This document shows, piece after piece, positions 17,975 through 63,230 of a stretch of DNA of 64,000 bases. Source of the stretch: a virus; the IMG/VR virus record IMGVR_UViG_3300048929_000741, positions 1 to 64,000 of that record; one strand, written 5' to 3'. Position 1 is the stretch's first letter; each line of letters starts with the position of its first letter. The translations under genes and the position numbers were made by a program. The notes beneath the pieces were generated by a model. It made no database searches and had not been told where the DNA came from. It saw only the letters and a list, made by a program, of their open reading frames with translations.

Positions 17975-18400
17975 ATGAATACATATTTGATTACTTTAAC
18001 AGGATATGATAGACCGGTAACTGCTTACGGTGAAACATCGGGAAAGGCTAAGTATGATTCCTATTTAGAAATGGGGGACTTGTTTGATGGGTTTGCTGAG
18101 TTTTTGCGATTTGTAAAAAGCATAAAGCTGATCCATAAATTTAGACCATGCGATTTGTTTGGTGATATTGAACAGTTCGAGAGAATGAAAAAATGCCGTG
18201 ATATCCCATTCGCCTTTATGGGAATGAAGGTGATTTTAAAATCCAGAAGCAGGGGAGAGATTAAAGGGACCATTGTAGGATCCAATGACAGTATGAATCT
18301 GGATATTTGTTTTGATGGGACCTGCCACAAAGAGAATTGTCACCCGCATTACGAATTGATCTATTTGGATAATAGCGGAAATGTCATAGCTGAATTTTAA
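17975..18400 (+). CDS. Hypothetical phage protein
   Basis: RBS GAAAGGA. Confidence 0.65.
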   Translation: MNTYLITLTGYDRPVTAYGETSGKAKYDSYLEMGDLFDGFAEFLRFVKSIKLIHKFRPCDLFGDIEQFERMKKCRDIPFAFMGMKVILKSRSRGEIKGTIVGSNDSMNLDICFDGTCHKENCHPHYELIYLDNSGNVIAEF

Positions 18401-18436
18401 ACTGAACCATAATAAAACAGAAAGGATAGGAGAAAC

Positions 18437-18697
18437 ATGACAGAATATTTAGCAGAAAGAACCCTTGCAAACATGAGATTCGGCTTGTCTGTAAAGAGGC
18501 CTGGATTTGCATTTAGTGAGAAAATGGCCCTTGAAATGGGGGTGAAGGCATTAGAAAAACAGATTCAGGCGCAGCCAGTAAATGACGGAGCATTCGGTAA
18601 GTGCCCGGATTGTGGATATGAATTCAATTCGGAACTTTTATCAGAGTATGATTTGAAATTCTGCATTAATTGTGGGAAGAAGATTGGTAACTCTTAA
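18437..18697 (+). CDS. Zinc-ribbon phage protein
   Basis: ALEKQI, CPDCG, FCINCG. Confidence 0.7.
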   Translation: MTEYLAERTLANMRFGLSVKRPGFAFSEKMALEMGVKALEKQIQAQPVNDGAFGKCPDCGYEFNSELLSEYDLKFCINCGKKIGNS

Positions 18698-18720
18698 CCT
18701 GTTTTTGAGGAGATGAAGGC

Positions 18721-19173
18721 TTGAAGAAAATATTAGATGCATGTTGTGGCAGCCGAATGTTTTATTTTGATCGGAATGATCCTGATGTGATATATGCGGA
18801 TAACCGAGAACTTGAAACAACTCTGTGCGATGGTCGGAAACTTTTAATAAAGCCAGATGTTCAAATGGATTTTAGAAATATGCCATACAAGGATAATTCT
18901 TTTAAGGTAGTGGTATTTGATCCTCCTCACTTGGAACATGCAGGCACCGGCTCATGGTTAGGGTTGAAGTACGGGATACTTCCAAAGGATTGGCCAGAAT
19001 ATTTAAAAGCAGGATTTAACGAATGCATAAGGGTATTAGAACCGGATGGACTATTAGTCTTTAAATGGAATGAAGATCAAATACCGTTGGTCAAGGTGTT
19101 GGAAATTTTTGATAGAAAGCCACTCTTGGGGGATCAGAGAGGGAAAACAAGGTGGTTGGTGTTTATCAAGTAA
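18721..19173 (+). CDS. SAM-dependent methyltransferase (phage type)
   Basis: ILDACCGSRMF, VVFDPPH. Confidence 0.85.
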   Translation: MKKILDACCGSRMFYFDRNDPDVIYADNRELETTLCDGRKLLIKPDVQMDFRNMPYKDNSFKVVVFDPPHLEHAGTGSWLGLKYGILPKDWPEYLKAGFNECIRVLEPDGLLVFKWNEDQIPLVKVLEIFDRKPLLGDQRGKTRWLVFIK

Positions 19174-19206
19174 ACCCGAATTTGACGGATTACTGTACTT
19201 TGATAA

Positions 19207-20110
19207 CTTAATATTGATAGTTGGTAGAAATTTCTGTATTATATAAGTTAGATACGGAATTTATATAGGAGAATGTGAAATGAATGACATGATTGATTTT
19301 TTAAATGATGATAGAAATCCTAGTATGTATGGCATTTTGACTGGTATATGTAAAGGTGAGCATTGGTCTTTAAATGAAGATTTCCTGATCTTAGACGTAG
19401 CATACTCTTATTGTGTCGGTGGTTGTGGCGTGGTTGGTAGGATTCCATTTGAGAAAACGAAACAAGCAAGAGTATTTTTTGAAAGAATTTTTTCTTCACT
19501 TAAGGAAAAGAATATATGTGAATTTGAATTTTCATCAGAGGACAATGCGTTATGTGCAAAGATACTGGATATTTTTTCTGATAAAGAACTATATTCAGAG
19601 GAAGAATATTCATATCGGAAAGCAGATAAGTGCGTAGATAATGCTGTTATGCCATCTTATACATTTTTAGAAGTAAATAGAAGTTTTATGAAAATGATAG
19701 ATATATATATAAATGCTGATATGTTGCTTGAACGCTTGAATAACTCATGGTATTGCCAAGAAGATTTTTTTAGATATAGTAAGTGTTTTGTAGCAATACA
19801 AGGAAAGGAAATTGTTGGCATTATATTTGGTTCTGCAAGATTTTTAAATATTATTGATGTTGATATTGAAGTGTTAAAAGAACATAGAGGAAAAGGGATT
19901 GCTACAACGCTGACTTCTTATTTTGTAGATGCTTGTATTAGTAATGGGTGGATAGTACAATGGGATTGCGTTGAATCCAATATTAAATCTAGAGCAGTCG
20001 CTGAAAAATGTGGATTTCAGTTGTTCAAAAAGAGACCATATTACTGGTTTACTTTATAAAATTAAATTTATATGTGTATTATTAAAAAATTACTAACTAT
20101 CAGTATTAAG
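19207..20110. repeat. Inverted-repeat pair bracketing the GNAT moron
   Basis: CTTAATATTGATAGTTGGTA (19207-19226) vs TACTAACTATCAGTATTAAG (20091-20110), 18/20 complementary. Confidence 0.8.
19280..20059 (+). CDS. GNAT acetyltransferase (moron)
   Basis: EHRGKGIATTL, WDCVESNIKSRAVAEKCGF; AT-rich, own promoter and terminator. Confidence 0.85.
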   Translation: MNDMIDFLNDDRNPSMYGILTGICKGEHWSLNEDFLILDVAYSYCVGGCGVVGRIPFEKTKQARVFFERIFSSLKEKNICEFEFSSEDNALCAKILDIFSDKELYSEEEYSYRKADKCVDNAVMPSYTFLEVNRSFMKMIDIYINADMLLERLNNSWYCQEDFFRYSKCFVAIQGKEIVGIIFGSARFLNIIDVDIEVLKEHRGKGIATTLTSYFVDACISNGWIVQWDCVESNIKSRAVAEKCGFQLFKKRPYYWFTL

Positions 20111-20209
20111 CTGGTAGTTTTTTTGTTGTAGTAAATCCAGAAAACTGAAATTTAGCAGCCAACTGCTAAGCGTTGGAGAAAAGAGAAGATCGAGCCGGAG
20201 GTGATTTAA

Positions 20210-24000: not shown

Positions 24001-24638
24001 AATATTGATAGTTGATGAAGTATAATAAATTTATTACAATTGATGGAGGGGTAGCATGAAAGACGAGATGAAGAGAGTTATCGAAGAAGATATACAAAAG
24101 GCAACAGAAATATTAAGAGATAATAAAGAAGATGAATGTGAGACTTTTTATCAAAGCCTTATATCGAAATATTCTCCATACATAAAAGGATTTGGAGATA
24201 ACTTATTTTACATAAGTATGTATGATGATTTTTCTACTACAATGGATAATATTCAAATTTTGCGTGATAAATTAGTTTTATTTAAAGCTGGAGGTTTTAT
24301 GGATTTTAGTGAAAGTCAAAAAAATTCATCACCCTTAATTACAATTACAAATGAAAATAAAAATGAAAACGCAAATTCTGTAAACATTACTATTTCTTTT
24401 AACGAAGTTCGAAAAAGCATAGAAAATATGTCGGCACTTACAGATTTTGAAATAGAAGAAATTCTGTTAAAAATAAATAATCTTGAAGAAATTGTAAATT
24501 CTAAAGACAGAAAATCTAAAAAATGGGAAAATGCAAAAGGTATAATCAATTGGATTGCAGATAAAGGTGTAGATGTTGGAATTGCATTATTACCGTTACT
24601 ATTGCAAATAAAATAATATTCAGCCAGCTATCAATATT
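24001..24638. repeat. Inverted-repeat pair bracketing moron 24056..24616
   Basis: AATATTGATAGTTG (24001-24014) vs CAGCTATCAATATT (24625-24638), 13/14 complementary. Confidence 0.75.
24056..24616 (+). CDS. Hypothetical moron protein
   Basis: AT-rich; TTGAAT-17-TATAAT promoter, RBS, downstream terminator. Confidence 0.75.
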   Translation: MKDEMKRVIEEDIQKATEILRDNKEDECETFYQSLISKYSPYIKGFGDNLFYISMYDDFSTTMDNIQILRDKLVLFKAGGFMDFSESQKNSSPLITITNENKNENANSVNITISFNEVRKSIENMSALTDFEIEEILLKINNLEEIVNSKDRKSKKWENAKGIINWIADKGVDVGIALLPLLLQIK

Positions 24639-24899
24639 TGATGGCTGGTTTTTTATTGCAAAAAATGAAAGGAGGCTGGATCTCCTGCGGGGCAAAGTCA
24701 TGACGGTTCCTTTCAAAAGAAACCATTTATTAAATACACGAGAGAAACAGGGAGAGTTCCGTTCATTGGAACAACACAATACGAGGGATTTGTGAGAGCT
24801 CGCCTTTATTCACACACAGGCTGTAATGTGTATGATGGAAAGACGATTAAAAGCCAACCCATCATTATTATAGTCAAATATAATTTATTGGAGGATATA

Positions 24900-25358: not shown

Positions 25359-25555
25359 AATTATAAATTGATACAAGCCGGGGCATAGACCCCGGTAAAA
25401 AAATAGCATAAAAAGAACATACATTCGATTTAACGGAAATAAACAAGCGGCAGAGTCACCGACCAAAGATCTTCTACCGCTTCACGCTTAAGGATATTAT
25501 AAAAGAAAATGTCTCCTTAAGCAACTGAAATTTAACGAAAAGGAGATTACATATT

Positions 25556-26593
25556 ATGAATGGACAAACCATAAAAGCACAGGTAATTAATAATATCATT
25601 GTTGCCATGGCGGAGCATGTGACTAAGGACGTTTTAGAAATTCTTCACCAGACGATAATAAAGGAATTTGTCAATGTCAATATGGAGGAAATAACCACTC
25701 TTCCAGTAGAGTACCAGAATGACACGGATCAGAAGAATAAGTATATCGTTCAACTTTTTATAGTGAAGAAGAAAATCAAAGATAATACTAAGCAAGCATA
25801 CCTTAGTTCAGTTAAACGCCTGATTACCTTAATTGATAAACCACTGGACAGGATAGAGGAATCCGATATCAGCTATTACCTTTCATGGTATGAGAAGCGG
25901 AATATTAATGTCGGCGGCAAGAAGAATCAGGCCATTACCGTAAATAATGAAAGGCGTTTCCTATCAGCGTTCTTCACATGGATGCGAAAGGAGAAATTGA
26001 TTGGAGAAAATCCGGTTGAAGCAACGGATCCGCTCAAAGCTATTAAAAAACCAATTGATTATTTTAGGCCAGAGGAAATGACAAAAATGAAAGACGCCTG
26101 TAAGAGTTTCCGGGAACGTGCCTTAATAGAGGTGCTGCGCAGCACTGGTGCCAGAGTAGGGGAGTTGGTAGAGATAACCCTTGACCAGATAGACTGGAAT
26201 ACCGGGGATATCATGATCCTGGGTGAGAAGAGCGACAAATATCGTCCGATATTCTTAGATGATGATGCCAGGTATTATTACCGGAAGTATATGGAGTCCC
26301 GGAACGATGATAGCCCCTTTATGTTCCCTCAGTGTAAGGCACCACATGATCAGATGACGACTTCCGGAATCAGGAGCATACTTAAAACTATTGGAAAGCG
26401 CGCCATGGTGAAAAGTAGGGTGTATCCCCATAAGATCCGTAAAACGCTCGGAATGACACTTAAAAACAAAGGTGTGGATATTGGAACAATACAGGAAATC
26501 ATGGGACATGGAAGTCCTTCTGTGACTGCGGCATACTATGCTCAATCGACTCCTGACACTTTGAGAAACATAAGAGAGAGGTGCATAGCCTAA
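25556..26593 (+). CDS. XerD-like tyrosine recombinase
   Basis: N-terminal SAM-like domain, STGARVGEL, YPHKIRKT, MGH...YY. Confidence 0.9.
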   Translation: MNGQTIKAQVINNIIVAMAEHVTKDVLEILHQTIIKEFVNVNMEEITTLPVEYQNDTDQKNKYIVQLFIVKKKIKDNTKQAYLSSVKRLITLIDKPLDRIEESDISYYLSWYEKRNINVGGKKNQAITVNNERRFLSAFFTWMRKEKLIGENPVEATDPLKAIKKPIDYFRPEEMTKMKDACKSFRERALIEVLRSTGARVGELVEITLDQIDWNTGDIMILGEKSDKYRPIFLDDDARYYYRKYMESRNDDSPFMFPQCKAPHDQMTTSGIRSILKTIGKRAMVKSRVYPHKIRKTLGMTLKNKGVDIGTIQEIMGHGSPSVTAAYYAQSTPDTLRNIRERCIA

Positions 26594-34164: not shown

Positions 34165-34743
34165 TTAAATCAAGAATAGATTTTTTTGAATAGCTTCTTC
34201 AATTTGCTTCGGTTGAATGCCAATGTATCGCTGAGTAACAGCAGCACTTGAGTGTTGCAGGAGTTGCCGAACAAGCTCAATATTGTATCCATTGTCATTG
34301 TAAAGGTTGGTCGCGTAGAATTTGCGGAAGCTGTGGGAACCAATATTATCAAGGCTTAGAGCCTCGCAGACCAGTTTTAAATGCTTTTGAATGGCTCTTT
34401 CGCTGATATCAAACAGTTTCGCACGACTGGATATGTTATTATCAAGCGCATATTGCAAGATGTAATTATACAGCTCGACCGGCACAGTAAAGTTTCTTTC
34501 CTTTTTGGTTTTCCCCTCTGTGATATTAAGGCGATACCGTTCGCCATCTTTGATAATGTCACATGCGTGGAGCTGCAGCACATCACCAATACGTAAGCCC
34601 AGGTTGGCTTCCAGTACTAAGGCAGTAGCGATCCGGTTGTTCGGCTTACAGGCGGTACCGTCCTTGGCTATGAACCCAGATCGGATAGTGTCAATGATAA
34701 GCTGATATGATTCGCGGGTTAGTGTCACGGTTTTTTTATTCAT
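34165..34743 (-). CDS. Small catalytic-domain-only tyrosine recombinase
   Basis: LGLRIGD, EGKTKK, GSHSFRK, LQHSS...RYIG; RBS AAGGAGG. Confidence 0.88.
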   Translation of the reverse strand: MNKKTVTLTRESYQLIIDTIRSGFIAKDGTACKPNNRIATALVLEANLGLRIGDVLQLHACDIIKDGERYRLNITEGKTKKERNFTVPVELYNYILQYALDNNISSRAKLFDISERAIQKHLKLVCEALSLDNIGSHSFRKFYATNLYNDNGYNIELVRQLLQHSSAAVTQRYIGIQPKQIEEAIQKNLFLI

Positions 34744-35017
34744 TCTATACTCCTCCTTGAAAGTTCGTAAAATACTTCTGAAAAGTTCGTATAATCTATT
34801 AACACCATCATACCACACGATAAAACCATTGTAAATACGTAATAGTTCGTTTGCTAACCATTTTACGAACTCAGAAACACCAATAGAAAAAGTACCCGGG
34901 ACGGGGTCTATAGGAAAGCTGTTTTCGGCCTTGTTATGTACGGAAAGTCCGAAAAATTCAAAAAGGGCTTTTCGTCAAAGATAAGAATTTGATCAAGAAA
35001 GTAAAGGGGTAAATATC

Positions 35018-49181: not shown

Positions 49182-49254
49182 TATATTGGTACAAGCTATT
49201 TACACCACACACAAATAATGGTACTATTTACTTATAATTATTTGGAGGTGCGGA

Positions 49255-50348: not shown

Positions 50349-50540
50349 GTGACCGATGTAAGAGAGGTCTTTATCACGAGGGAAGTTGCTGATGAATTAA
50401 ATTTAACTCCGACATATCTGATTAAGTTAGCAAAAAGAATGGGGTTAAATGAAACGGAAATGCGAGAAGCAGGAAACCGAAATTATTTATTCAGTAAAGA
50501 GGCAGTAGAAAAACTCAAAAATCGTAGTAAAGTCTATTAA
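50349..50540 (+). CDS. Small HTH regulator
   Basis: ITREVADELNLTPTYL; RBS GGAGGTG; TTGACG promoter upstream. Confidence 0.7.
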   Translation: MTDVREVFITREVADELNLTPTYLIKLAKRMGLNETEMREAGNRNYLFSKEAVEKLKNRSKVY

Positions 50541-50689
50541 AAGCACCCGTCCTACCTACCAAGTAACAACGAGTGCTTATCTCGAGGAAAACCTCTATGA
50601 AATATATTATCATAGAGCGTTCTTCCTTTCAAGGCCAAATGGCCATGAGATGTGTTTAAATATGTTTTTTATTATCGGGAGGTATTAAT

Positions 50690-51550: not shown

Positions 51551-51599
51551 AAGATAATCTTACACTTACAAAAGATGAAACCGTAAAGGAGAATGTACC

Positions 51600-51779
51600 A
51601 TGAGTAAATACAGAATGATTGTTTTATATATATTGAGGAGTAACAGCATTAGAGAACTGGAAGATACGTTACATGATGATGCATATTTGAGTACTTTAAA
51701 TGATGGATTTAGAGAATTACTTATAGAAGATATAAAAAAGGTTATTATGGAAAAAGAGATGGAACAAATAACCGCATAA
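51600..51779 (+). CDS. 59-aa hypothetical protein
   Basis: RBS AAAGGAG; followed by a hairpin terminator. Confidence 0.5.
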   Translation: MSKYRMIVLYILRSNSIRELEDTLHDDAYLSTLNDGFRELLIEDIKKVIMEKEMEQITA

Positions 51780-51879
51780 CGATGCATAAGAGAGCGAGGA
51801 TTGATTTCCCCGCTCTTTTCTTCTGCTTTTAAATAAAGAAAAAATTGACAGGCTTTTGTAAATCTGTTATTGTATATAC

Positions 51880-52022
51880 AGCTAAAATTGAAAGAAGGTC
51901 GTATATAGCCACGTTAATATATACATATACAGGGAGTGTTGACATGTCCACCCCGGTGCTTGGTAGCTCTTGGAGCCGTGACCCGTTGTGAAACGTACAC
52001 AACAGGACATGTCTCTTTTTTT
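51880..52022 (+). ncRNA. Candidate sRNA/leader upstream of rha
   Basis: TTGACA(51845)-17-TATTGT; GACATGTCC...GGACATGTC-TCTTTTTTT enclosing a TTGGTAG motif. Confidence 0.45.
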
Positions 52023-52223
52023 GTTTAAAATTCCGGGATTTATTCCTGTGAATATATAGGGGTGAAACTCCTTTCCGGGCATGCTCCGGGAACGCCCCGA
52101 AATAATTTTACTGGCTCTGCGGAATGTAGAGTCGGAAGTGAAAATTTAGGAGGGTACGCTTAGATGGGCAGAGCCGAAATTTTTACTACAGGATAAATTA
52201 AGAAAACACAGACAATTACCACT

Positions 52224-52799
52224 TTGGAAATTGCGGAGATGATGGATGTTCCTCATGCAGATCTTTTAAAGAAATTAGAAGGTCGAAGAGATAGGAAGGG
52301 TTATATCCAAATTTTAGGTGAAGGACAAATGTCCGTTACCGATTATTTTATTAAATCTACATACGTCACAGGACAAAATAAGGAAATGCCTTGCTACCTT
52401 GCCACCAAAATGGGTTGTGATTTTCTGGCCAATAAATTTACCGGGGAAAAAGGAATCCTTTTCACAGCAAAATATGTGAAGAAATTCCATGAGATGGAAG
52501 CGGCTTTTACACCGAAACGCCCTCAAACATACATTGAGGCATTAGAAGAGCTTTTACAGTCAGAAAAGCAAAAAGAACAGCTTCGATTGGAATTGGATCG
52601 TAGCAAAGACTGGTATTCCATTAAACGGGTGGCCGCTCTAAATGGAGTTGACTGGAGAACCTTTGATTGGCGAAAGTTGAAGCGTACTGGTTTGGATATG
52701 GGATATGAAGTCAAAAAGATTTTCGATGCCAATTATGGCGAGGTCAATACATATCACCGGGAAGTATGGGAAGCAGTATATCCCGAATATGAAATTTAA
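52224..52799 (+). CDS. Rha family phage regulatory protein (start uncertain)
   Basis: GCDFLANKFTGEKGILFTAKYVKKFHEME, PQTYIEAL. Confidence 0.85.
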   Translation: MEIAEMMDVPHADLLKKLEGRRDRKGYIQILGEGQMSVTDYFIKSTYVTGQNKEMPCYLATKMGCDFLANKFTGEKGILFTAKYVKKFHEMEAAFTPKRPQTYIEALEELLQSEKQKEQLRLELDRSKDWYSIKRVAALNGVDWRTFDWRKLKRTGLDMGYEVKKIFDANYGEVNTYHREVWEAVYPEYEI

Positions 52800-52868
52800 T
52801 AAAGAAATGTATTTAGAAAGGACGTCTTTAACCGGGCGTTCTTTTTCTATGCCCGAAAGGAGGAGCTC

Positions 52869-53054
52869 ATGAAAAATATAATTGCATATACCGAGGATCA
52901 GGTAAAACAAATTGTTGGACTTTTAAACGGTGTGACCGTTGCTGGTATCCAGAATTCTAAGCAGATTGCTGCAGTTGCTCAGATTTTGGATTCAGGAACG
53001 CCGGGAGAAATAAAGGATCCGGTCAAAACAACAGAAGTGTGCCGCTCAAAATAA
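52869..53054 (+). CDS. Small tail-region protein
   Basis: RBS AAGGAGGAG. Confidence 0.6.
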   Translation: MKNIIAYTEDQVKQIVGLLNGVTVAGIQNSKQIAAVAQILDSGTPGEIKDPVKTTEVCRSK

Positions 53055-53088
53055 TGCTAGACCAGCAAAAGGAATGGGGTGAAGTTAA

Positions 53089-54207
53089 ATGGGATATCAA
53101 CCTTTTCATGTTCTAAGAAACTGGCTGAATTTACCTTCTCAAAAGACTCCTATTAATGCATTGAGTCTAAACTATATGGATAATGGCATTAAGGAATTGG
53201 ACAACAGAACTGTCCAGTTAGATGCAAATAAAGCAGAGAAATCATCACTAAATACTTTGGTTAAAGATGTAACGCTGGATACAAACACAGGAATACTTAC
53301 CGTTACTTTACAGAATGGTACCGTAAAAACATACGATCTGGACATTGAGAAAGTAGTTACTAACTTTGATATAAACGATCAAAATCAGCTTGTATTAACT
53401 CTGGCAGATGGAACACAGAAAGTGATTGATCTGACACGGTTCGTTTATTCCGTGGAAAGCACTGCCACGATTTCCATGACAATCACTGACCGGGTCATGA
53501 GGGCGGTTATTGTAGATGGATCTGTGACTATGGATAAACTTGAGGCAGCCATTCAGACAGAATTTAGACAGTATTTGCTTGACGCTCAGTCGGCCCGTGA
53601 TGCCGCACTCAATTATCAGAAGTTTGCAAAGCGGTATACTTTGGGTGACCCGGATTTTCCGGGAAGCGAGAATGATTGCGCGAAGTTTTATTATGAACAG
53701 GTAAAGGGGGATTCCGCTACCTCCAGCCAGAATGCTCAGCAGGCCGCAGACAGCGCAGCAGTATCAACCACACAGGCGGGAATCGCTACTACTAAGGCGG
53801 CAACGGCCACTGCAGCAGCAAATCAGACAGCGGCAGATGTTTTAACCACAACTCAGAAAGCAGCGGCAGCTGGCGCCAGCGAGCAGGTGGCAAGGGATAA
53901 GGCAGCGGAGGCAGTATCAAGCCAGACGGCAGCGGGGCAGAGCGCAACAGCGGCACAGGCCAGTGCATTAGAAGCTAAAAGCCTTACCCGTGGAGGAGTT
54001 GTCCCAGAAGACGCTGAGGACAATGCAAGATGGTACTGGCAGCAGGTGCAGGATCTAAAGAAGCAGATTGACCAAGCGGCTAAAATATCAATACCACAAT
54101 TTTATGTTGATATGAGTAAAATGCAACTTAAGAGCAATACGGCAGCAAAGGGTATTAGTTTTAGAATGGAAGCAGGTAAATTTATTGGAAAGGAGATCAT
54201 GCAATAA
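53089..54207 (+). CDS. Tail fibre/baseplate protein
   Basis: TPINALSLNYMDNGI, Ala-rich coiled coil, DNARWY. Confidence 0.75.
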   Translation: MGYQPFHVLRNWLNLPSQKTPINALSLNYMDNGIKELDNRTVQLDANKAEKSSLNTLVKDVTLDTNTGILTVTLQNGTVKTYDLDIEKVVTNFDINDQNQLVLTLADGTQKVIDLTRFVYSVESTATISMTITDRVMRAVIVDGSVTMDKLEAAIQTEFRQYLLDAQSARDAALNYQKFAKRYTLGDPDFPGSENDCAKFYYEQVKGDSATSSQNAQQAADSAAVSTTQAGIATTKAATATAAANQTAADVLTTTQKAAAAGASEQVARDKAAEAVSSQTAAGQSATAAQASALEAKSLTRGGVVPEDAEDNARWYWQQVQDLKKQIDQAAKISIPQFYVDMSKMQLKSNTAAKGISFRMEAGKFIGKEIMQ

Positions 54208-55169
54208 TGATTGAATCAGATGAAGTTATATATGGAACGATAGGAATGCTTCCTGATGGGGAGTTTGATCCTGATAAAAAGTATGAGCTGTTAAATTTAG
54301 TATCCTATGATGGTAGCAGTTATGTGGTACACACTGATCCGCCTAAGGGTACTCCGCCGACTGATTTAAACTACTGGCAAGTATCAGCACTGGGAACCAG
54401 CAAGGCCACGGCTGACAGCGTGGGTACAGTTAAGCCAGACGGCACAACAACGGAGGTAAGTACTGACGGCAGTCTGAGCGTAAAGACAGCCACGCAGAAC
54501 ACCCTGGGGCTGGTAAAGGGCAGTAATGGAATTACGGTAGGATCTGATGGGAGCATCGATATAAACACGCTCTTCACGCAAGCTACGGAGTTGGCCAACA
54601 TCATAGCAGGGGAAGCTATTGCTTCTGTATTTGGGAAAGTAGCTAAATCCATAGCTGTAACAATGGGATTGAATGAAAATGCCCTGCTTAAGAATATGCT
54701 GACCAACATGGATGCAAATGATCAGAATAAGGTCCCAACGTCAGCATTTGTGCATACCCTCTGGGCGCGGATCGGCATGGGTGAAGATCTGGATATCGGT
54801 GCGAATTTGACCGCAGTGGTTAAAGCGCTAAATAGCAATTTAAGTAACACATCAAGTGTAACTGTTACAGCCCCTAGCGGGTTTGGAGGCACGGTAAATG
54901 TGGAATTAATAAAAACTGGTAATCAAGTTGATTGCCGAATAACGGTAAATAACAGCGGTGATATTCCGTCAGTAACTGCAATCACTAATGTCATTACTGA
55001 AGCTTACCGCCCTAAAACACAAGTATTTATTGTGCTAAGAAAAAACAATTCAGACAGCACCGCAGCCGTTATGTATTCGAACACTATAAATGCAATTAGA
55101 TCAACCGATCAACCAATTTCCGCTGGGACTTGGTATGGCTTCGCACATTGGTCTACTGCAACTTACTAA
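54207..55169 (+). CDS. Tail fibre/receptor-binding protein with exchangeable C-terminus
   Basis: Y..LNLVSYDGSSYV, GTVKPDGTT, LGLVKG; LNSNL junction at 54828. Confidence 0.82.
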   Translation: MIESDEVIYGTIGMLPDGEFDPDKKYELLNLVSYDGSSYVVHTDPPKGTPPTDLNYWQVSALGTSKATADSVGTVKPDGTTTEVSTDGSLSVKTATQNTLGLVKGSNGITVGSDGSIDINTLFTQATELANIIAGEAIASVFGKVAKSIAVTMGLNENALLKNMLTNMDANDQNKVPTSAFVHTLWARIGMGEDLDIGANLTAVVKALNSNLSNTSSVTVTAPSGFGGTVNVELIKTGNQVDCRITVNNSGDIPSVTAITNVITEAYRPKTQVFIVLRKNNSDSTAAVMYSNTINAIRSTDQPISAGTWYGFAHWSTATY

Positions 55170-55569
55170 ATGATCATTTATTCAAGTGGAATAACTAAGT
55201 AATCTATGTAAGCGTATCTGTTGTCAGAACTAGCGTATATCGTTGTAGCCCAGTTACTACTTGATCCCACCGTGATGGTAAATTGTTTACCTGCATCGGC
55301 AATTTTTACCACCTGTGGAGTAAAAAGACGACGGACATCTGAGACTAAATCCACGAAAGCATAATGACAGTTATCAAAGAAAAACTCAACAGCTCCGTTT
55401 GTGTTTCTGGAAAATTCCATAGATCCTAATGCTACTACAATAGATTTTTGAGGTACAGTATAGCTCAACTCAGTTATTGGCTCCCAATTGGTATTATTAA
55501 ATATTTTGTTGGATTGTATTGTTTTCCTCACAGTATAAGCTGATTTTATCTTATTTAAATTGCTATTTA
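54829..55569. mobile_element. Invertible tail-fibre segment (shufflon)
   Basis: Perfect 15-bp IR TAAATAGCAATTTAA at 54829-54843 and 55555-55569; two convergent LNSNL-starting C-termini. Confidence 0.85.
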
Positions 55570-55570
55570 A
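55178..55570 (-). other. Silent alternative tail-fibre C-terminal cassette (about 130 aa)
   Basis: Open from LNSNLNKIKS to LVIPLE*; no RBS or start of its own. Confidence 0.8.
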
Positions 55571-55748
55571 CGTAGAACCGGAGCTGTCCGAAAAAACAGC
55601 AGAAAGGGAAATTATGATACAAATAATTGTAACATGTATAATAACAGCAATTATAACTTCTCTATTAACGACAAAAATATTAGCCACCTACTATTTTAAA
55701 ATAATAGATGGCTATGTAAGTAATATGGTTGAAATGTCAAAAGATTTA

Positions 55749-56525
55749 TTACGGACAACATATTTGAAGAAATGAAATACCTAAGGAGGTTAATTGAATA
55801 ACACGTTTTTCTAATTTTAAATTAGGATTAGGATGTATTGATGTATAATTATTTAAAAATTCTTCATATACATCATATGCATTTGGCTGTTCGAGATATT
55901 GATTATACAAACTTTCTATTAATCCAAGTCTGGTTAAAGAGGAAATGGATTGAGATGATTCTTGCATTTTAGTACAATCTGGATTCATTAAAAAAAGATT
56001 GGTAATTACATAACTATAAGTGGGCTTTTCGGACTTAATTAACTTAACATCGCAAACTGGTAGATATCTTTTGTCCTGTAACAATAATAAGTTTTGTGCG
56101 TCTAAAGTCGACATCGTTTTTAATAGTTCTCCAAATGAAGGGTGTACTAAATCACTTTTACGGTTATCAATAGAAGCAGAAATCAAATTAGAGAACATTT
56201 CTCTTAATTCGTCTTCTTCAACACAGTATTTTGAATTTTCTAATGCTGGCATAATCGTTTGGATTTTACCCTCAATACGATTTTCTTCTGGTATTTTAGC
56301 AATTTTATCTTCTAATGATTTTTTGAAGATTTCTAAATCAAGTGCATATTTGATTTTTCGCTTTTCTGCCATTTGAGAGATTCCACCGAAAACTAAGTAC
56401 CAGCAGTCGGCTAAAGTTTGTCCTGCATTTTTAGTTGGTAAATCCGTTAGGTTCTTAGCGGCATTATCAACCGAATCGGGAACTTCTACATTTAATAAAG
56501 AAAAATTATTTGTTGTTTCTGACAT
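55749..56525 (-). CDS. Abi-alpha/DUF4393-like protein
   Basis: LREMFSNLISASID...VHPSFGELLKTMSTLDA, LTRLGLI, LTSLGISFLQIC. Confidence 0.75.
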   Translation of the reverse strand: MSETTNNFSLLNVEVPDSVDNAAKNLTDLPTKNAGQTLADCWYLVFGGISQMAEKRKIKYALDLEIFKKSLEDKIAKIPEENRIEGKIQTIMPALENSKYCVEEDELREMFSNLISASIDNRKSDLVHPSFGELLKTMSTLDAQNLLLLQDKRYLPVCDVKLIKSEKPTYSYVITNLFLMNPDCTKMQESSQSISSLTRLGLIESLYNQYLEQPNAYDVYEEFLNNYTSIHPNPNLKLEKRVIQLTSLGISFLQICCP

Positions 56526-56699
56526 ATTAACACGACCTTTCAATTTGATAATAATATCTTATCAGATTGTGAAGAAATAACAATGATTTTGTAGGAAATG
56601 TTGTTATGAATTTTGCTATTTAACGAACTAAATAAACTTGTAAACCAGTCCCGTACCGGGTCTTATTTTTATGCCCAAGAGGCGGAAAGGAATTTAATC

Positions 56700-57125
56700 A
56701 TGAGTAATATTGAAAAAATAAAGTTTGGGGATCAGCCTTTTGATCTGGTTCCTAACGGGGTGAAACTGGAAGAAACCGGAGGAACAATAACCTTTCAGAA
56801 AGGACCGGCCTCCTTTGACAGCATCAAGGCGCTTTTAAAAGCCAATGGTGAAATCGCTCAGACAGGTTTGTCTGGCAATACTGTTTGGGTTCGTGAAGAT
56901 TTGGTATATGCAAAAAGATTAACAGAAGAGTCTGATTATGTGATCGGTAAGGATGAGGACGGAGTAACGGATATCAAGGCGGATGTAATGATTGCCTATT
57001 TTAAGACTCCTGATCTGAATGATCGGGTAGCAGCATTGGAAGCAGAGAATGCGGAAATTAAAAAGGATAATGAATCCTTAAAAACAACCGTTGGTACTTT
57101 AGTTTTATCAAGTCTGGAGGTGTAA
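56700..57125 (+). CDS. Tail-associated hypothetical protein (XkdW-like position)
   Basis: RBS; C-terminal coiled coil. Confidence 0.6.
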   Translation: MSNIEKIKFGDQPFDLVPNGVKLEETGGTITFQKGPASFDSIKALLKANGEIAQTGLSGNTVWVREDLVYAKRLTEESDYVIGKDEDGVTDIKADVMIAYFKTPDLNDRVAALEAENAEIKKDNESLKTTVGTLVLSSLEV

Positions 57126-57127
57126 GT

Positions 57128-57259
57128 ATGTTTGAAATGTTAATGTGGCTATATGATGGTGGCAAAGGTAAACTTACGGTCACTATGTTATCAAATGCAG
57201 TAATTAAGGGCTGGATCACTGATACAGAAAAGCAGGAGATATTGGCAACTAAAAAATAA
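57128..57259 (+). CDS. XkdX-like small protein
   Basis: AVIKGWITDTEKQEI; RBS GGAGGTG. Confidence 0.65.
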   Translation: MFEMLMWLYDGGKGKLTVTMLSNAVIKGWITDTEKQEILATKK

Positions 57260-57277
57260 TGAAACGGAGGTGCCGCC

Positions 57278-57592
57278 ATGACAGAAACGGAGGTTGCCGT
57301 TAAATTGGAAGCGCATGAGCATGAAATTAAATCATTAAAACATCGGATGGAAGATCAGGAGGCACAGAGTAAGACAATCCAGGAACTGGTTTTGTCAGTT
57401 AAAGAACTGGCTCTAAATATGCAGGCCATGTTAAAAGAGCAGGGAAGCCAAGGAGAAAGACTGGCAAAGCTTGAAGCTGCACCCGGAGAAGCGTGGAGTA
57501 GCATGAAACGTACAATCATTAATACAATAGTAGGGGCAGGAGCCGGAGCACTTGCTACCGGGATATTTTATATTATAGCTCAAAATTTATAA
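57278..57592 (+). CDS. Coiled-coil plus C-terminal TM lysis-region protein
   Basis: Position before the holin; C-terminal TM. Confidence 0.6.
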   Translation: MTETEVAVKLEAHEHEIKSLKHRMEDQEAQSKTIQELVLSVKELALNMQAMLKEQGSQGERLAKLEAAPGEAWSSMKRTIINTIVGAGAGALATGIFYIIAQNL

Positions 57593-57605
57593 GGAGGGAA
57601 AAGGA

Positions 57606-57806
57606 ATGAACAAAGAATATTTAGTAAAATGGGGTAAGGCTGCAGGAATCAGGGCAATTAAAACTATGGCACAAACCGCTATAGCCACAATAGGCACCAC
57701 AGCAGCAATGTCAGAAGTTAACTGGGTTATGGTAACTTCTACTGCTGGATTGGCAGGTATCATATCGGTTCTAACATCATTAGCCGGTTTACCTGAATTA
57801 AAATAG
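57606..57806 (+). CDS. Holin (r1t type)
   Basis: AAGIRAIKTMAQTA...SVLTSLAGLPE. Confidence 0.9.
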   Translation: MNKEYLVKWGKAAGIRAIKTMAQTAIATIGTTAAMSEVNWVMVTSTAGLAGIISVLTSLAGLPELK

Positions 57807-57894
57807 CTTGTTGCGACCGTCGCAACGGTTGTAATGTTACAATTTTTATGGACCTGGGACAATCCTGGGTCCTTTTTCGATTGGAGGAAAATAT

Positions 57895-58662
57895 ATGCAG
57901 ATCAATAAATTACTTACACCCTATAACTACAGCAATGGCGAATTGAACCGTATTAAATATATCGTAATTCATTATGTGGGAGCGCTGGGAGGAGCAGAGG
58001 CTAACTGTAGATACTATGCTTCACAGTATGTTGGTGCCAGTGCTCACTACTTTGTAGGCTTTTCCGGAGGAATCTGGCAGTCCGTTGAAGACAAAAATAT
58101 TGCATGGCATTGCGGAGCCAAAACCTATATCCATCCTGAATGTCGCAACAGCAACAGCATTGGCATTGAGCTGTGTGTCAGAAACAAAGGCAGCCAGTCC
58201 GATACCAGCCGGGACTGGTATTTTGAAGATGCAACAGTTCAGGCAGCCATTGAATTAACCAAAGATCTCATGGCGAAGTATAACGTACCTGCAGATCGTG
58301 TAATCCGGCATTATGATGTGACTGGGAAGATCTGTCCGAACCCTTATGTCTATAATCATACGCAGCACACATGGGAGGATTTTAAGGCAGCACTGGTGAA
58401 AATACCAACTGAATATACTAAGGGCTGGAACCATGATAAAAATGGCTGGTGGTATGCTGATACGAAAATTACTTACCATAAATTTTGTTGGCAGATAATC
58501 AATGGCCATAAGTACTATTTTAATCCGGACGGATACGCTGTTACCGGTTGGCAGGAGATAGATGGTAAATGGTATTACTTTGAGCCCAGAGCCGGCCATA
58601 ACCTGGAGTGTGCGCTGTATGTATCAGATCAGGAAGGAGCGCAGCGTATTGGTGAGTTTTGA
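57895..58662 (+). CDS. Endolysin: N-acetylmuramoyl-L-alanine amidase with cell-wall-binding repeats
   Basis: YIVIHY, SAHYFV, AWHCG, SIGIE, RHYDVTGKICP; GW...WYYF repeats. Confidence 0.92.
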   Translation: MQINKLLTPYNYSNGELNRIKYIVIHYVGALGGAEANCRYYASQYVGASAHYFVGFSGGIWQSVEDKNIAWHCGAKTYIHPECRNSNSIGIELCVRNKGSQSDTSRDWYFEDATVQAAIELTKDLMAKYNVPADRVIRHYDVTGKICPNPYVYNHTQHTWEDFKAALVKIPTEYTKGWNHDKNGWWYADTKITYHKFCWQIINGHKYYFNPDGYAVTGWQEIDGKWYYFEPRAGHNLECALYVSDQEGAQRIGEF

Positions 58663-58905
58663 GATTAGTGAAATAGTGCTATATTTGTTTGGCAAGGTTA
58701 CCAATTGCCCAGGTTGATATAAGATGATAATATGAATGCATTCTAAAACATAAATCAAATGCTGAAATCCCAGAATACTATAATCGATTATATTAAAAAT
58801 TTACAAGTCATATGTTACATTCTAATGGCTTTCTTTTCTGCACTTATTTATTGCTTAGAATGATAATACAACAATTACAAAAGATAAATTTTGGAGGTAT
58901 ATTGT

Positions 58906-60501
58906 ATGAAAAAGAGAGCATTGCTAAGATTGGCAACGAGTATTTGTTTTATGTTTTGTATAATGGTTTTAGGGCAATTCACTACTATGGCTGATGAGGT
59001 TGAACCTACATGGATAACATTAACTTCAATGTCTACTGGTAGATCTGACTTTCAAATGGAAGTAATAAATGGTAAAATTTATGCTATGGGTGGGATTGAT
59101 AATGGTGTTATTAATAATTCAACAGAGGTATATGATCCAAGTACAAATCAATGGGAACCATTAGCTTCGATGTCAACAGCCAGGTATTCATTTCAAACAG
59201 AAGTAATAGATGGAAAAATTTATGCTATTGGTGGAGTGATTAAAAATAGTTCAAGAACTAATTCAATAGAGGTTTATGACCCGGCTACTAATAAATGGAC
59301 AACATTAGCTTCAATGTCTACAGGTAGGTCTGATTTCCAAACGGAAGTAATTAATGGCAAAATATATGCTATTGGTGGAACTACCAATAATAATGCTACC
59401 AATTCAACAGAGGTATATGATCCAATTACAAATCATTGGACGACACTAGCTTCTATGTCAATATCTAAGTGTAGATTTCAAACAGAAGTAATAGATGGAA
59501 AAATATATGTTATCGGTGGTTCTGATTTGAATAAAAATAAAACAACAGAAGTATATAATCCATCTACTAATCAATGGACAACACTAGCTTCTATGTCTAT
59601 ATGTAGGCAGAACTTTCAAACAGTAGTAATAGATGGAAAGATATATGCTATGGGAGGACAAGGGCTAAATATTGATGGAGGATTTTTTGTATCAACAGAG
59701 GTATATGATCCAGCAATCAATCAATGGACAACATTGGCTTCTATGTCTACTAGCAGGACAATGTTTCAAACAGAAGTAATAAATGGGAAAATATATGCTA
59801 TAGGGGGTTGCGATGCCACTACTCACAAAAATTCAACAGAGACATATGATCCATCTACTAATCAATGGACAACATTAGTTTCAATGTCTAAAGATAGGCA
59901 AAGATTTCAAACAAAAGTAATTGATAGAAAAATTTATGCTGTTGGTGGTGATAGTAATTCCTCTGTGGAAGTATATACAATTCCAGAAACACTATCAAAC
60001 CTTAAAGCTATTGGCGGAGATTCCAGAGTAGACTTAACCTGGAATCCTGTAACCGATGCAACAAGCTACACCGTTAAGCGCTTCACGACTGCAGGAGGCC
60101 CATATACAACAATAGCGACAGGTATAACAGGAACTACCTATACAGACACGGGCGTTACTAATGGTACTACATACTATTACGTTGTAACTGCAATCGTAAA
60201 TGGGAGTGAAAGTTGGAGTTCTAACGAAGCCTCAGCAACTCCACAAGCTTCCACTAATCCAAATCAGCCAACCGGAAACAAGGCTCTTCTTGTGATCTCA
60301 ATGGTTACTGGCGAACGTAAAGAATATGAAATGACCACTGATAAAATTAACGATTTCATTGCATGGTATAACAGCAAGGCAGCTTCCAGCCCAACCTATG
60401 TTATTGAAAAGGAGTATAACAAAGCTTCGTTTACAGCTCGAAAAGATTATATTTCTTACGAACAGATTTCAAACTTTGAGGTGAATGAATATAACAATTA
60501 A
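58906..60501 (+). CDS. Secreted Kelch-repeat plus fibronectin-III protein
   Basis: Signal peptide; seven GKIYAIGG-type repeats of about 47 aa; Fn3 (LTWNPV...YYYVVTA). Confidence 0.88.
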   Translation: MKKRALLRLATSICFMFCIMVLGQFTTMADEVEPTWITLTSMSTGRSDFQMEVINGKIYAMGGIDNGVINNSTEVYDPSTNQWEPLASMSTARYSFQTEVIDGKIYAIGGVIKNSSRTNSIEVYDPATNKWTTLASMSTGRSDFQTEVINGKIYAIGGTTNNNATNSTEVYDPITNHWTTLASMSISKCRFQTEVIDGKIYVIGGSDLNKNKTTEVYNPSTNQWTTLASMSICRQNFQTVVIDGKIYAMGGQGLNIDGGFFVSTEVYDPAINQWTTLASMSTSRTMFQTEVINGKIYAIGGCDATTHKNSTETYDPSTNQWTTLVSMSKDRQRFQTKVIDRKIYAVGGDSNSSVEVYTIPETLSNLKAIGGDSRVDLTWNPVTDATSYTVKRFTTAGGPYTTIATGITGTTYTDTGVTNGTTYYYVVTAIVNGSESWSSNEASATPQASTNPNQPTGNKALLVISMVTGERKEYEMTTDKINDFIAWYNSKAASSPTYVIEKEYNKASFTARKDYISYEQISNFEVNEYNN

Positions 60502-60614
60502 TGAAGACTAAATACAGGCGGGTATCTGGTATACGAACCCGCCCTTAAAAATACTTTCCATATTTGATCCATCGTGGTATTATAGTAATGTAGAGTGGCA
60601 GAAAGGATAGCCAT

Positions 60615-60797
60615 ATGAATATAAATGATAATACACTTAAAGCAATCAATGTAATTCCTTATAATGGAAAATCAATAAATCTTAATGATCTGTGCATGTC
60701 CTACACAAATTTCCAACCAAATCAAGTGTTAGAAGCAGCAGTACATGGAGATATGATAGTTATAACAACAGCTATAAAAAACAATCTAACTAGTTAA
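60615..60797 (+). CDS. Hypothetical protein
   Basis: RBS GAAAGG; own promoter-like TGGTATTAT. Confidence 0.5.
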   Translation: MNINDNTLKAINVIPYNGKSINLNDLCMSYTNFQPNQVLEAAVHGDMIVITTAIKNNLTS

Positions 60798-61172
60798 AAT
60801 TTTAAATGTCGCTCTACTCCCGTTGAAATAAGCCTATAAGTATTACTGTATTCGCTGTTTGCATAACGCTGAAGCTGCATTAATCACTTTCTGGTTCCTA
60901 CGGTAAAAGGAAAGGTCCTGCTGCCGTTAATGGAACTCAGTTCCGCTATACAGTTATAGCAAAATCCTCCGGTTTTGTAGTTGGCAAACCTACAATCGAA
61001 TGACATAGGAGATTTTTTGCTTGATGCTGATGCTATTTGGAAATACACCTGCATAGCAGAAGGTTTATTTTCTCTATTCTATAATTTAGAATCCCGGACA
61101 TTCTATAAATACCTTCATAGAATCTCCGGGATTTTGTAAACTTTTAGGACAAAAATTAAGCTTTAGATTAAA

Positions 61173-61883
61173 TTAAAAGTTATCATAATAAGATAATCCA
61201 AAATTACTTATGTTATAATTCTTTCCATGAACAATGCCAACACCATATCTAATAGCTTCTCTTCTTTCCTGACCGTCAGCACTTATTACATAAGTATGTA
61301 TTGCCGTTAAAATATCTGGATCACCAGCCCAAGCCGATCCTTTTGCTAATTTATAGCCGGCAATAGATGATAGCATATCAGACTTAGAAACGCTAAATGA
61401 CCATTCGTGTACAGACTGATCAAAGAGATATGCCAATCCCTGTGTGGTTGTGATTCCAAAATCACTTGCATAATTTAATGCATGATTAAAATAATCTTCT
61501 GCATGACTGATTTGAAGAGAAATACAGTAGGAATTTTTGCCTAATGCTTCAAAACATGCCTGCCAATCAGAAACTAATGCCCCTTTTGGTGTAGAAATAC
61601 TATCCCCCCAAGCTACCTGTTTAGAGGTTGAAATTTTTAACATATCTTTTACAGATTTAGCTTTAGTTGCACCGAAAATGCTTGTAAAATCTGTATTATG
61701 TGATGCAATAAATTCTTTAAGTAACGGCTGTAGTGTTTCTTGTCCTAAATTATACTGGATAATACCAAATGACATACCTTGACCATCAGCATTTCCAGTA
61801 ACATTTGAGTATCCGTTATTGCCTTCAAAAAATCCTGTATTTGATAATAATTTTTTCTTAAGACTTAAAGTAATGCTCTTCAT
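61173..61883 (-). CDS. Lysozyme-like glycoside hydrolase
   Basis: FE...GNADGQGMSFGIIQYNLGQ; LAYLFDQSVH; RBS GGAGG. Confidence 0.6.
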   Translation of the reverse strand: MKSITLSLKKKLLSNTGFFEGNNGYSNVTGNADGQGMSFGIIQYNLGQETLQPLLKEFIASHNTDFTSIFGATKAKSVKDMLKISTSKQVAWGDSISTPKGALVSDWQACFEALGKNSYCISLQISHAEDYFNHALNYASDFGITTTQGLAYLFDQSVHEWSFSVSKSDMLSSIAGYKLAKGSAWAGDPDILTAIHTYVISADGQERREAIRYGVGIVHGKNYNISNFGLSYYDNF

Positions 61884-62093
61884 ATATTAATCCTCCATAT
61901 TTTTATTGTAATTAAAAATTTATCATGAGGGGAATTACAAGATGGAAATAACATTCCCTATTATTCCATGCTTGTCTCACTGGAATTTTTGATTACACTA
62001 TATAAAAATAAATTTTTTTATTTTTAGCAACTAAATTTATATTATTTTATATTTATTTAAAAAGTATCATAACTTAAAAGGTTATGGTACTCT

Positions 62094-62350
62094 CAGACTG
62101 TAGACAAAATCCCGGGCTACCGCCCGGGATTTTTCTTTGAAAAGTTTCTAAAAGTTGAGTATAATAAGGACTTGAAGGCATTTTTCTGATATAATAGGAG
62201 TATCAAAATAAGGCGGTGATTCTACCTACTTATGATGACTCAAAATGCTAATAAGAAAAGAGAACAGATTAGTTTATGTGTATGGATGATATGGTTACTC
62301 AGAATCATCTTCTTAGAATCATTGATAATGCAATTGATCGGAACTTTATA
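62094..62350 (+). mobile_element. IS1182-like left-end remnant
   Basis: End CAGACTGTAGACAAA; broken N-terminus MMTQNANKKREQI / MDDMVTQNHLLRIIDNAID from 62232. Confidence 0.65.
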
Positions 62351-62392
62351 ATTGGAATAGGATATTGAACTTCAATGAGTATACGGTAACGT

Positions 62393-62524
62393 CTAAACTT
62401 TACAATCTATTGCCAGCTTATCATCTCTTATGCCTTTGAAAACAGGCTGCCTAAAGCTATCCTTTTCATTTAGACCGGTCTCAAGAAAAGTTAAGCATTC
62501 ATTTTTTTCACAATTATTTAGCAT
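62393..62524 (-). pseudogene. 43-aa deletion chimera ending in an ATP-dependent DNA ligase C-terminal motif
   Basis: RBS AAGGAG; MLNNCEKNE...FRQPVFKGIRDDK. Confidence 0.45.
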
Positions 62525-62610
62525 TTGTTTGACTCCTTAACAAAATATAGTAAAATTTGTCTTTCTGTAGTATATCATATTCTCTATCAAAAAAACAAAC
62601 ATTTGTTCGA

Positions 62611-62905
62611 AAATAGCAATTTAGCACTAAAAGCAAATGCCAGCGATTTGGAGAGCAAAGCCGGACTCGGAACAAATAGTTATGATGGTGTACAGTCCAT
62701 TATATATCCTTCCGGTATAGGCAATACATCATATACAAATGCCCAGGTTTTATCACGCGCACCATATTCGCAGAACCCAGGTGTACGCGCGATGTATGGA
62801 TTTGAAAATGTTGGAAGTAACGCAGGCGCATTATATTTAGATACTGATGGACGACTTAAATGGATAGCCCATGATGGTAATACAAAAGTAATTGATTGGA
62901 CATAA
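62611..62905 (+). other. Orphan tail-fibre C-terminal cassette
   Basis: Starts at AAATAGCAATTTA (NSNL), open to VIDWT*. Confidence 0.75.
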
Positions 62906-62945
62906 ATACGCCCGTATCAAACAAAGGATTCTCTAATACAAATGA

Positions 62946-63230
62946 TCATTTTAATGAAATATTAACTCGAACATATCCGTAGTTTCCGGGCGCAGAACTA
63001 AACAATGAAGGATCATTGGTATAAATGCTAAAACTGTTGGGGCTCATGTGAATTTGCCACTTACTGTAGTCAACATCGTTATCTTGTACGTTAACTCCAG
63101 TAATGGTTACATTATACCTGGAACTATGAGGAAGCGATATTCCAGATGAAGAAGCATATCCACTGCTTCCACCTCCAAAAATAATAGGATATTCTATGTC
63201 AGTTCCAATAATATTTAAATTGCTATTTAA
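62946..63230 (-). other. Orphan tail-fibre C-terminal cassette (94 aa, not in the ORF track)
   Basis: Starts at the 15-bp site 63215-63229; reads LNSNLNIIGT...VRVNISLK*. Confidence 0.78.

Follow-up and report, generated by a model that had tools for sequence, protein, structure and literature searches.

The provirus record IMGVR_UViG_3300048929_000741 comprises 78,350 bases, of which we analyzed bases 1 to 64000 (here called the window), and it encodes a tail-fiber-like gene accompanied by silent alternative C-termini that are bounded by inverted copies of a 14-nucleotide (nt) site. We consider it likely that the segment at 54207-63229 is a multiple-inversion tail-fiber switch, that the XerD-like tyrosine recombinase encoded at 25556-26593 is its most likely enzyme, and that the similar motif copies at gene junctions elsewhere are mostly chance matches. 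An earlier reading of the window (the original prediction) had proposed that one site family, TAAAY-N4-ATTTR followed by RCG, links a tail-fiber shufflon, the insertion of an Abi gene, and early-region gene junctions to one XerD-like recombinase in an integron-like system. The fiber shufflon is real and conserved, as is its palindrome; the assignment of the recombinase to the shufflon is, on comparative grounds, well supported though not universal.

The tail-fiber-like gene is an open reading frame (ORF; 54207-55169) whose constant segment ends at an intra-ORF site, s1, and is followed by the cassette A1 (Table 1). Inverted repeat searches gave two inverted copies of s1 downstream (s2 and s4), and a fourth site, s3 at 62610, is absent from the earlier list. 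The strings named in that list were confirmed, with TAAATTGCTATTTA located at 55556 and 63216, its reverse complement at 54829, and the cassette ends TAAATGATCATTTA and AAATGATCATTT at 55167 and 62940, respectively. The exact 14-mer occurs 3 times (0.00 expected), and the 12-nt palindrome at 55167 and 62940 gives 4 strand-counts (0.06 expected). Translation showed that the cassettes A1, A2, B1, and B2 each span ∼90 to 125 codons and are each in frame with their own site; A2 and B2 are in frame with s1 after inversion, and B1 is reachable through a flip between s3 and s4. The degenerate site s2' (56604-56625) is followed by no in-frame ORF. Matches of the fiber region to PHROG tail and virion families are weak, and the region is placed after the Dit-like, Tal-like, and 53089 fiber-like genes.

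Table 1. Coordinates of the shufflon, the recombinase genes, and other features of the window and its record.
Feature	Position	Strand	Remarks
Constant N-terminal part of tail-fiber-like gene	54207..54828	+	full ORF 54207-55169
Site s1, TAAATAGCAATTTA	54829..54842	+	inside fiber ORF; codes LNSNL; ends constant part
Cassette A1	54843..55169	+	C-terminus expressed in this assembly; in frame with s1
Palindrome P, TAAATGATCATTTA	55167..55180	.	between convergent A1 and A2; contains stop codons of both
Cassette A2	55178..55555	-	silent; minus-strand frame continues from site
Site s2	55556..55569	-	inverted copy of s1
Cargo between direct site copies	55573..56603	-	small membrane ORF and Abi_alpha gene 55749-56543
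Degenerate site s2'	56604..56625	-	keeps TTGCTATTTAACG; cassette-side arm lost
Site s3, AAAATAGCAATTTA	62610..62623	+	one mismatch; oriented as s1; codes ENSNL
Cassette B1	62624..62905	+	silent
Palindrome P of distal module, AAATGATCATTT	62940..62951		
Cassette B2	62946..63215	-	silent; stop is TGA within distal P
Site s4	63216..63229	-	inverted copy of s1
XerD-like tyrosine recombinase	25556..26593	+	345 amino acids; without arm-binding domain; Pfam Phage_integrase and SAM-like N-terminal domain
Small tyrosine recombinase	34165..34818	-	217 amino acids
GNAT gene unit	19171..20154	+	promoter, gene (ORF 19280-20059), terminator
P-like motif flanking GNAT unit	19171-19184		
Site-like motif flanking GNAT unit	20141-20154		
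Tyrosine integrase	left edge of window		
Early genes			several DNA methyltransferases and GNAT gene
Large terminase	41959		
Dit-like distal-tail gene	46761		
Tal-like tail-tip gene	47205		
Fiber-like genes	53089 and 54207		followed by Abi_alpha gene, lysis genes, and Kelch-repeat gene
Portal, capsid, and tape-measure genes	past 64 kb of record		

We hypothesize that strand exchange by a tyrosine recombinase takes place within the 14-nt LNSNL-coding site and could thereby fuse any of A1, A2, B1, and B2 in frame to the constant N-terminus, with the palindrome AAATGATCATTT, whose arms are those of the site, serving as a boundary for single-cassette exchange. The product of 25556-26593 would act from 28 kb away, and the lysis and accessory genes between the two modules would be passengers. 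The direct site copies around the Abi gene would mark cargo in a former cassette position, and the motifs at 19171 and 20141 would be decayed relatives of P and the site, carried along with a mobile gene unit. We infer catalysis by 25556-26593, exchange at these exact bases, and current activity in the prophage.

Relatives were found in Lacrimispora, Hungatella, and further Lachnospiraceae genomes, and the constant fiber region is encoded in 12 viral and 14 genomic related loci, with 72 to 88% identity at the protein level across the 26. They have two backbones, a large type that includes the window (in the order terminase, distal tail, fiber, lysis, distal module, portal) and an ordinary ∼40-kb siphovirus type (tape measure, distal tail, fiber, lysis), and G009 and G010 each hold both types in one genome. 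G001 belongs to Lacrimispora xylanisolvens DSM 3808, which has the recombinase and several sites, and L. sinapis JR3 has two fiber modules and lacks the recombinase. A near search of window positions 47000 to 57000 against the phage collection returned zero matches. Of the 24 related loci extending to s1, 21 preserve all 14 of its bases, as does the L058 fiber gene; the synonymous positions are invariant, and in locus L038 a core change from AGCA to AGCG is present in both partner sites. Inverted copies lie 250 to 1,600 nt downstream of the s1 equivalent, and silent inverted copies are kept as well. P is central in 19 of 33 distinct modules at one mismatch or fewer and in 26 at two or fewer, and the modules that lack it even at two mismatches are mostly short ones, probably with a single cassette. 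Large-type relatives also carry extra silent modules of ∼600 nt (site, cassette, palindrome, cassette, inverted site) in two other slots, which the window fills with a DUF4062 gene (36226-37206) and a radical SAM gene (45515-46540); the DUF4062 slot is taken by a silent fiber module in G007, G009, and G010.

The cassette-side arm of the site differs among silent copies of relatives, and the trailing RCG, which the original prediction had counted as part of the site, is variable after their genuine sites and drops out of the definition. Of the proposed core classes, AGCA/TGCT and the GATC palindrome do organize the fiber cassettes; the proposed TGAA channel is indistinguishable from chance. We also observed a conserved stretch of ∼40 nt, GTAGAACCGGAGCTGTCCG..., after many inverted sites in relatives (55570-55615 in the window), which leads to a small hydrophobic ORF and is present in up to three repeats in locus L009.

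Modules that differ in orientation or context between related phages provide evidence for shuffling. Among phages that carry a 60 to 66% identical homologue of the recombinase, G026 and G027 share a 488-nt module (98.7% identical) in opposite orientations relative to a 90% identical flank, and G021 and G037, whose flanks are 99.9 to 100% identical, hold a common cassette (∼95%) that is expressed in one and silent and inverted in the other. Homology of this shared cassette stops inside P, and the partner cassettes are unrelated. Likewise, the cassette expressed in L006 and L007 is silent in L034 and L041, and the distal-module cassette of L035 is the expressed cassette of L043. Two different prophages in the metagenome-assembled genome (MAG) G009 have a 100% identical module between flanks that are 62 to 74% identical, with the identity beginning at the first base of s1 and stopping two bases past s2. 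In these modules of relatives, identity breaks at sites or inside P, and the exchanges between phages therefore indicate that both the site and the palindrome serve as borders.

The 78-kb record encodes three tyrosine recombinases, and a serine recombinase (PF00239) was absent from it in a search that was positive in 12 of 14 control genomes. The product of 25556-26593 retains all catalytic residues (R, K, HxxR, H, and Y) in a XerD-type two-domain layout. It scores 114 bits against the XerD model (cutoff of 330) and 106 against the XerC model (cutoff of 335), and by these comparisons it shares the fold class and domain layout of XerC/XerD and is not an orthologue. The second enzyme, 34165-34818, to which the original prediction had also given a possible role, has a homologue in G002 and G010 and was not found in G001, G007, and G009, all of which keep modules; it is thus missing from three of the six relatives of type I searched with it (G004 was also negative, from a record that is 30% complete), and we rejected it as the invertase. 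The integrase was rejected as well, the integrases of site-bearing phages being mostly 22 to 28% mutually identical or serine enzymes. No convincing inverted repeats were found around either recombinase gene. A 9-nt inverted repeat, GCTTAAGGA ... TCCTTAAGC, lies at 25485-25525 just 5' of the 25556-26593 gene and is invariant in 11 of 11 relatives; it could function as an operator or form a hairpin that regulates the recombinase.

The XerD-like protein remains the best candidate because it co-occurs with the site and because the site varies with its clade. Homologues of 84 to 98% identity are present in every large-type relative with enough sequence, and we tested three identity groups from 80 viral contigs that encode relatives of the protein. 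Within the 83 to 85% group, 4 of 6 records contain the site 13-mer (both records lacking it are fragments), and within the 60 to 66% group all 13 of 13 do, 12 of them with a plus/minus pair. The latter group includes phages with a different-looking fiber protein and gene order, and its annotated member G020 has the site pair inside a fiber gene in a different gene order. The 13-mer was found in none of 8 records of the 53% group, and 9 of 16 records of that group have, at a fiber-like gene, inverted TAAATAGCAA pairs that continue with GG or other bases. Reversed control patterns gave 2 single matches in 27 records and 1 single match in the 16 records of the 53% group. More than 25 phage records thus combine the recombinase family with inverted site copies, and the cassette-adjacent side of the site changes with the recombinase clade. 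Enzyme family and site therefore travel together, by these records across at least three phage lineages. This is the chief support for the link to 25556-26593; records within each group being probably close kin, it represents perhaps three independent lineages.

Several observations weigh against this assignment or against inversion in the phage studied here. The records of the 60 to 66% group are probably close kin, and the 13 of 13 therefore represents few independent lineages. About ten relatives of the ∼40-kb type (G005, G047, G050, G051, both prophages of the closed genome G008, and G006, G052, and G054 to G056, which are genomes or MAGs) have the same fiber gene with perfect s1 and s2 and no homologue of 25556-26593; the sole tyrosine recombinase of each is an unrelated integrase, and these are mostly 22 to 28% identical to one another. 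Perfect sites in these enzyme-free relatives imply that the enzyme is dispensable for site upkeep or that another factor acts. The homologue in G007 is broken by stop codons. Assembled relatives of the window's type are collinear without exception; large inversions between distant modules, if they occur, are rare or short-lived. At the population level, contigs of three root metagenomes over 53800-63500 have zero strand-change joints at sites, and contigs of two metagenomes pass from the constant region into A1 unbranched and run straight through s3 and s4. On the side of site use, the 741-nt s1-s2 unit (54829-55569) was assembled in two metagenomes as a contig of its own with double the read depth of the flanks, and one of its loose ends fuses A1 in frame to a different fiber gene; since the constant region enters A1 unbranched, this points to a second context for the module and not to inversion in this phage. 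Neither the inverted junction predicted for the switch nor the parental junction was found in the metagenome and viral collections, and the lack of the parental one makes this result uninformative. Both orientations were seen between related phages (G026/G027 and G021/G037) and not within this phage's own population.

These points raise the alternative of a real shufflon served by another enzyme, either a host recombinase supplied in trans in the manner of RecV and Mpi/Tsr or an unrecognized phage protein, with 25556-26593 performing a different job such as dimer resolution. Consistent with it are the ∼10 prophages that keep perfect sites without the recombinase family, two of them in a closed genome, and the finding that no recombinase is encoded within 10 kb of the fiber gene in 12 related viral loci. 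Beyond the fiber prophages, the site is present in host loci as well (L059 7600-8100 in G008 and L062 4650-5020 in G006), where it lies in a small gene coding ...ELNSNL next to a conserved 351-amino-acid protein with zero family matches and, in G008, also beside an RHS-repeat gene. However, the joint travel of family and site and the clade-linked change in the site would be hard to explain if the two were unrelated, and no conserved candidate enzyme was found in the gene set common to all site-bearing phages. We regard another enzyme as unlikely. The ∼40-kb relatives may draw the enzyme from another prophage, use a different enzyme, or carry idle switches.

The early-region strings are all located where they had been reported: the motif at 19171 supplies the stop codon of ORF 18721-19173, that at 25521 lies directly 5' of the ribosome-binding site of 25556-26593, and those at 19171 and 20141 bracket the GNAT ORF. 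The strings and positions of the earlier observation therefore stand, but enrichment outside the shufflon does not. In the region 1-53000, TAAAY-N4-ATTTR occurs 2 times against 1.5 expected from simulations that kept local composition, the arm motif at one mismatch 28 times against 27.4, and at two mismatches 241 times against 255.5. The 12-mer AACTGAAATTTA common to 20141 and 25521 occurs 2 times against 1.6 expected. Across 11 relatives, the region upstream of the recombinase gene is 91% conserved except at 25521, whose right arm and ACG vary more than any other columns; the invariant feature of that region is the different, 9-nt inverted repeat described above. The proposed copies at 18398 and 18695 are weak, with one arm each. 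A genome-wide set of sites at early-gene junctions is not upheld, and we take 18398, 18695, and 25521 to be chance matches or unrelated sequence.

The Abi insertion, which the original prediction had linked to the site family, has firmer support, since the gene is flanked by direct copies of the site. Its product matches Pfam Abi_alpha (E = 2.6e-42), and 56604-56625 forms with 55560-55572 a 13-nt direct repeat around the gene. Loci L009 and L030 (in G001 and G006) have Abi_alpha alleles in the same place between direct site copies that are ∼25% identical to that of the window, and the arrangement is thus present in three phages. Other relatives have different cargo: an acyltransferase (Acyl_transf_3) replaces the silent cassette in L011, and L039 has a unit of promoter, hydrolase-like gene, and terminator exactly between the palindrome and the inverted site. 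The GNAT unit of the window has the same promoter and terminator as this homologous L039 unit, which lies inside the L039 shufflon; when the two units are aligned, 19171 falls on the genuine P of L039 and 20141 on its genuine site, column by column. This alignment suggests that the two motifs probably descend from genuine shufflon elements. In G008b, the same methyltransferase gene is followed by TAAACTGAAATTTA, of which the motif at 19171 is the diverged equivalent, and G001, whose own unit occupies the corresponding genome position, has TAAATTAGGATTTGACG, a strict match with trailing ACG, past the terminator of that unit. Further copies of the GNAT-type unit have weaker versions of the motifs at the same offsets, and seven one-mismatch arm matches cluster within 19171-20141. 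We also note that the units at 19210-20125, 24001-24650, and 39989-41075, which hold three unrelated genes (GNAT, a 186-amino-acid ORF, and a DUF4062 gene), have a promoter-plus-terminator frame in common, with complementary ends and many copies in relatives.

The original prediction in full, in which sites with matching arms but different cores form separate channels and one integron-like platform captures gene cassettes at early-gene junctions and switches fibers, draws on this cargo in genuine-site cassette positions (Abi_alpha in three phages, Acyl_transf_3 in L011, and the hydrolase-like unit in L039), on the alignment of the GNAT flanks with the P and site of L039, on the position of TAAATTAGGATTTGACG after the unit terminator in G001, and on the silent modules of relatives in the DUF4062 and radical SAM slots. 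Against it stand the lack of enrichment across the 53 kb of early and middle region, the poor conservation of 25521, and the half-sites at 18398 and 18695. Moreover, the window's two alternative slots are free of site remnants, and two of the three GNAT-type units in the window have no flanking motif. The units share 60 to 70 nt of promoter and terminator sequence, which is sufficient for homologous recombination, and the motifs may be inherited along with it; homologous exchange through these flanks is a simpler route for the movement of GNAT-type units. The recombinase also falls far below the cutoffs of the integron-integrase models (52 and 33 bits versus 265 and 435). We consider this broad version improbable. 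What stands of gene-cassette capture is a narrower lead, that nonfiber genes occupy genuine-site slots in relatives, and its genome-wide form is not sustained.

A more general possibility, which we hold tentatively and think somewhat unlikely, is that the recombinase-site pair is a cassette-exchange platform that works across genome slots tens of kilobases apart and across co-resident prophages and moves fiber tips and Abi, acyltransferase, hydrolase-like, and GNAT genes as units with a site at one end and the palindrome at the other. The same events may lie behind the unusual gene order and the module-bounded distal tail-lysis block. As for the remaining alternative, a fossil system whose repeats persist through the conserved LNSNL peptide while cassettes move by ordinary homologous recombination, it would fit the zero population heterogeneity of this phage and the mosaic around s1 in the G008 prophages, which homologous recombination can explain, but we judge it highly improbable given the invariant synonymous site positions, the conservation of P and of silent noncoding site copies, the joint change of partner sites in L038, the modules inverted between near-identical phages, and identity breaks that coincide exactly with the 14-nt sites, a length insufficient for RecA-type exchange.

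With regard to the surrounding genes, the apparent lack of head and tail genes that had been pointed out earlier is explained, for these genes lie beyond 64 kb, outside the window and inside the record. In the window (41959-63300) and in L005 (3335-17398), the portal, capsid, and tape measure come only after lysis, and this unusual order of terminase, distal tail, fiber, and lysis is common to G003 and G010. The distal tail-to-lysis block is flanked by shufflon modules in relatives. The interval from the lysis genes to the distal module contains a gene for a Kelch-repeat protein of six to seven blades (58891-60501), and the Kelch genes of relatives lie at varying positions in that interval. 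The window has two DUF4062 genes on opposite strands (36226-37206 and 40013-41044).

Phage host range is set by fiber tips, and if our reading of 54207-63229 and its relatives is correct, dispersed spare tips traded between prophages at 14-nt borders would be a compact and portable means of changing host range in gut and soil Lachnospiraceae. Use of the same borders by cargo would, if true, offer a testable mechanism for the movement of accessory and defense genes in phages, and the short conserved site together with its clade-specific variants is a ready substrate set for recombination assays.

The closest parallel is the Rin shufflon of Bifidobacterium prophages, in which inversion at 11-bp sites gives a receptor-binding protein alternative C-termini (Mavrich et al. 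2018, PMC6109161); that study also describes a second locus without an adjacent invertase and notes that supply in trans was not reported for phages (PMC6109161). Both systems are phage borne and combine short sites upstream of variable cassettes with a XerD-like tyrosine enzyme that has no arm-binding domain. They differ in that rin adjoins its cassettes in one cluster, whereas the recombinase gene here is 10 to 30 kb distant, and in that the tail-to-tail cassette pairs here are split by a conserved palindrome and have unrelated site sequences. The modules here are also 7 kb apart, with lysis and accessory genes between them (a spread of ∼35 kb in relatives), and cargo genes occupy cassette positions. 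If confirmed, three features would add to what is known of Rin-type systems: an enzyme encoded at a distance, modules scattered over the genome, and a palindrome as second boundary element.

The R64/IncI shufflon (Rci, sfx, and pilV) likewise relies on multiple inversion by a tyrosine recombinase and has segments with two convergent C-terminal ends. In R64 sites, the core and one arm are conserved, and the sites described here similarly have one well-conserved side and one less conserved, the cassette-side arm varying in silent copies. The R64 system, in contrast, concerns a plasmid pilus adhesin, with rci adjacent and 19-bp sites that have a 7-bp core, and to our knowledge, no conserved palindrome has been reported between its convergent ends. 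The Gin, Cin, Min, and Pin systems (of Mu, P1, p15B, and e14) also switch tail-fiber C-termini by inversion, with multiple segments in Min, but they use serine recombinases, 26-bp sites, and an enhancer, and the 78-kb record holds no PF00239 member. The Mpi/Tsr enzymes of Bacteroides and RecV of C. difficile resemble the proposed enzyme in acting on sites distant from their own genes; they are host genes that mostly flip promoters, whereas here the enzyme is phage borne and the sites are within coding sequence.

Integrons share with this system a tyrosine recombinase and gene-sized units between short inverted-arm sites with variable centers, and direct site copies flank accessory genes in some of the relatives. 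However, the sites here are 14 nt long with no attC-type structure, there is no attI by the recombinase gene, and there is no one-way array under a single promoter, the cargo genes having their own promoters and terminators. No sites were found within 3 kb of 25556-26593 and no cassette array beside it, and its product scores 52.3 bits against TIGR02249 (cutoff of 265) and 33.2 against NF011946 (cutoff of 435). The label "integron-like" does not survive these comparisons, and the system is a variant of the Rin/R64 shufflon type, not an integron.

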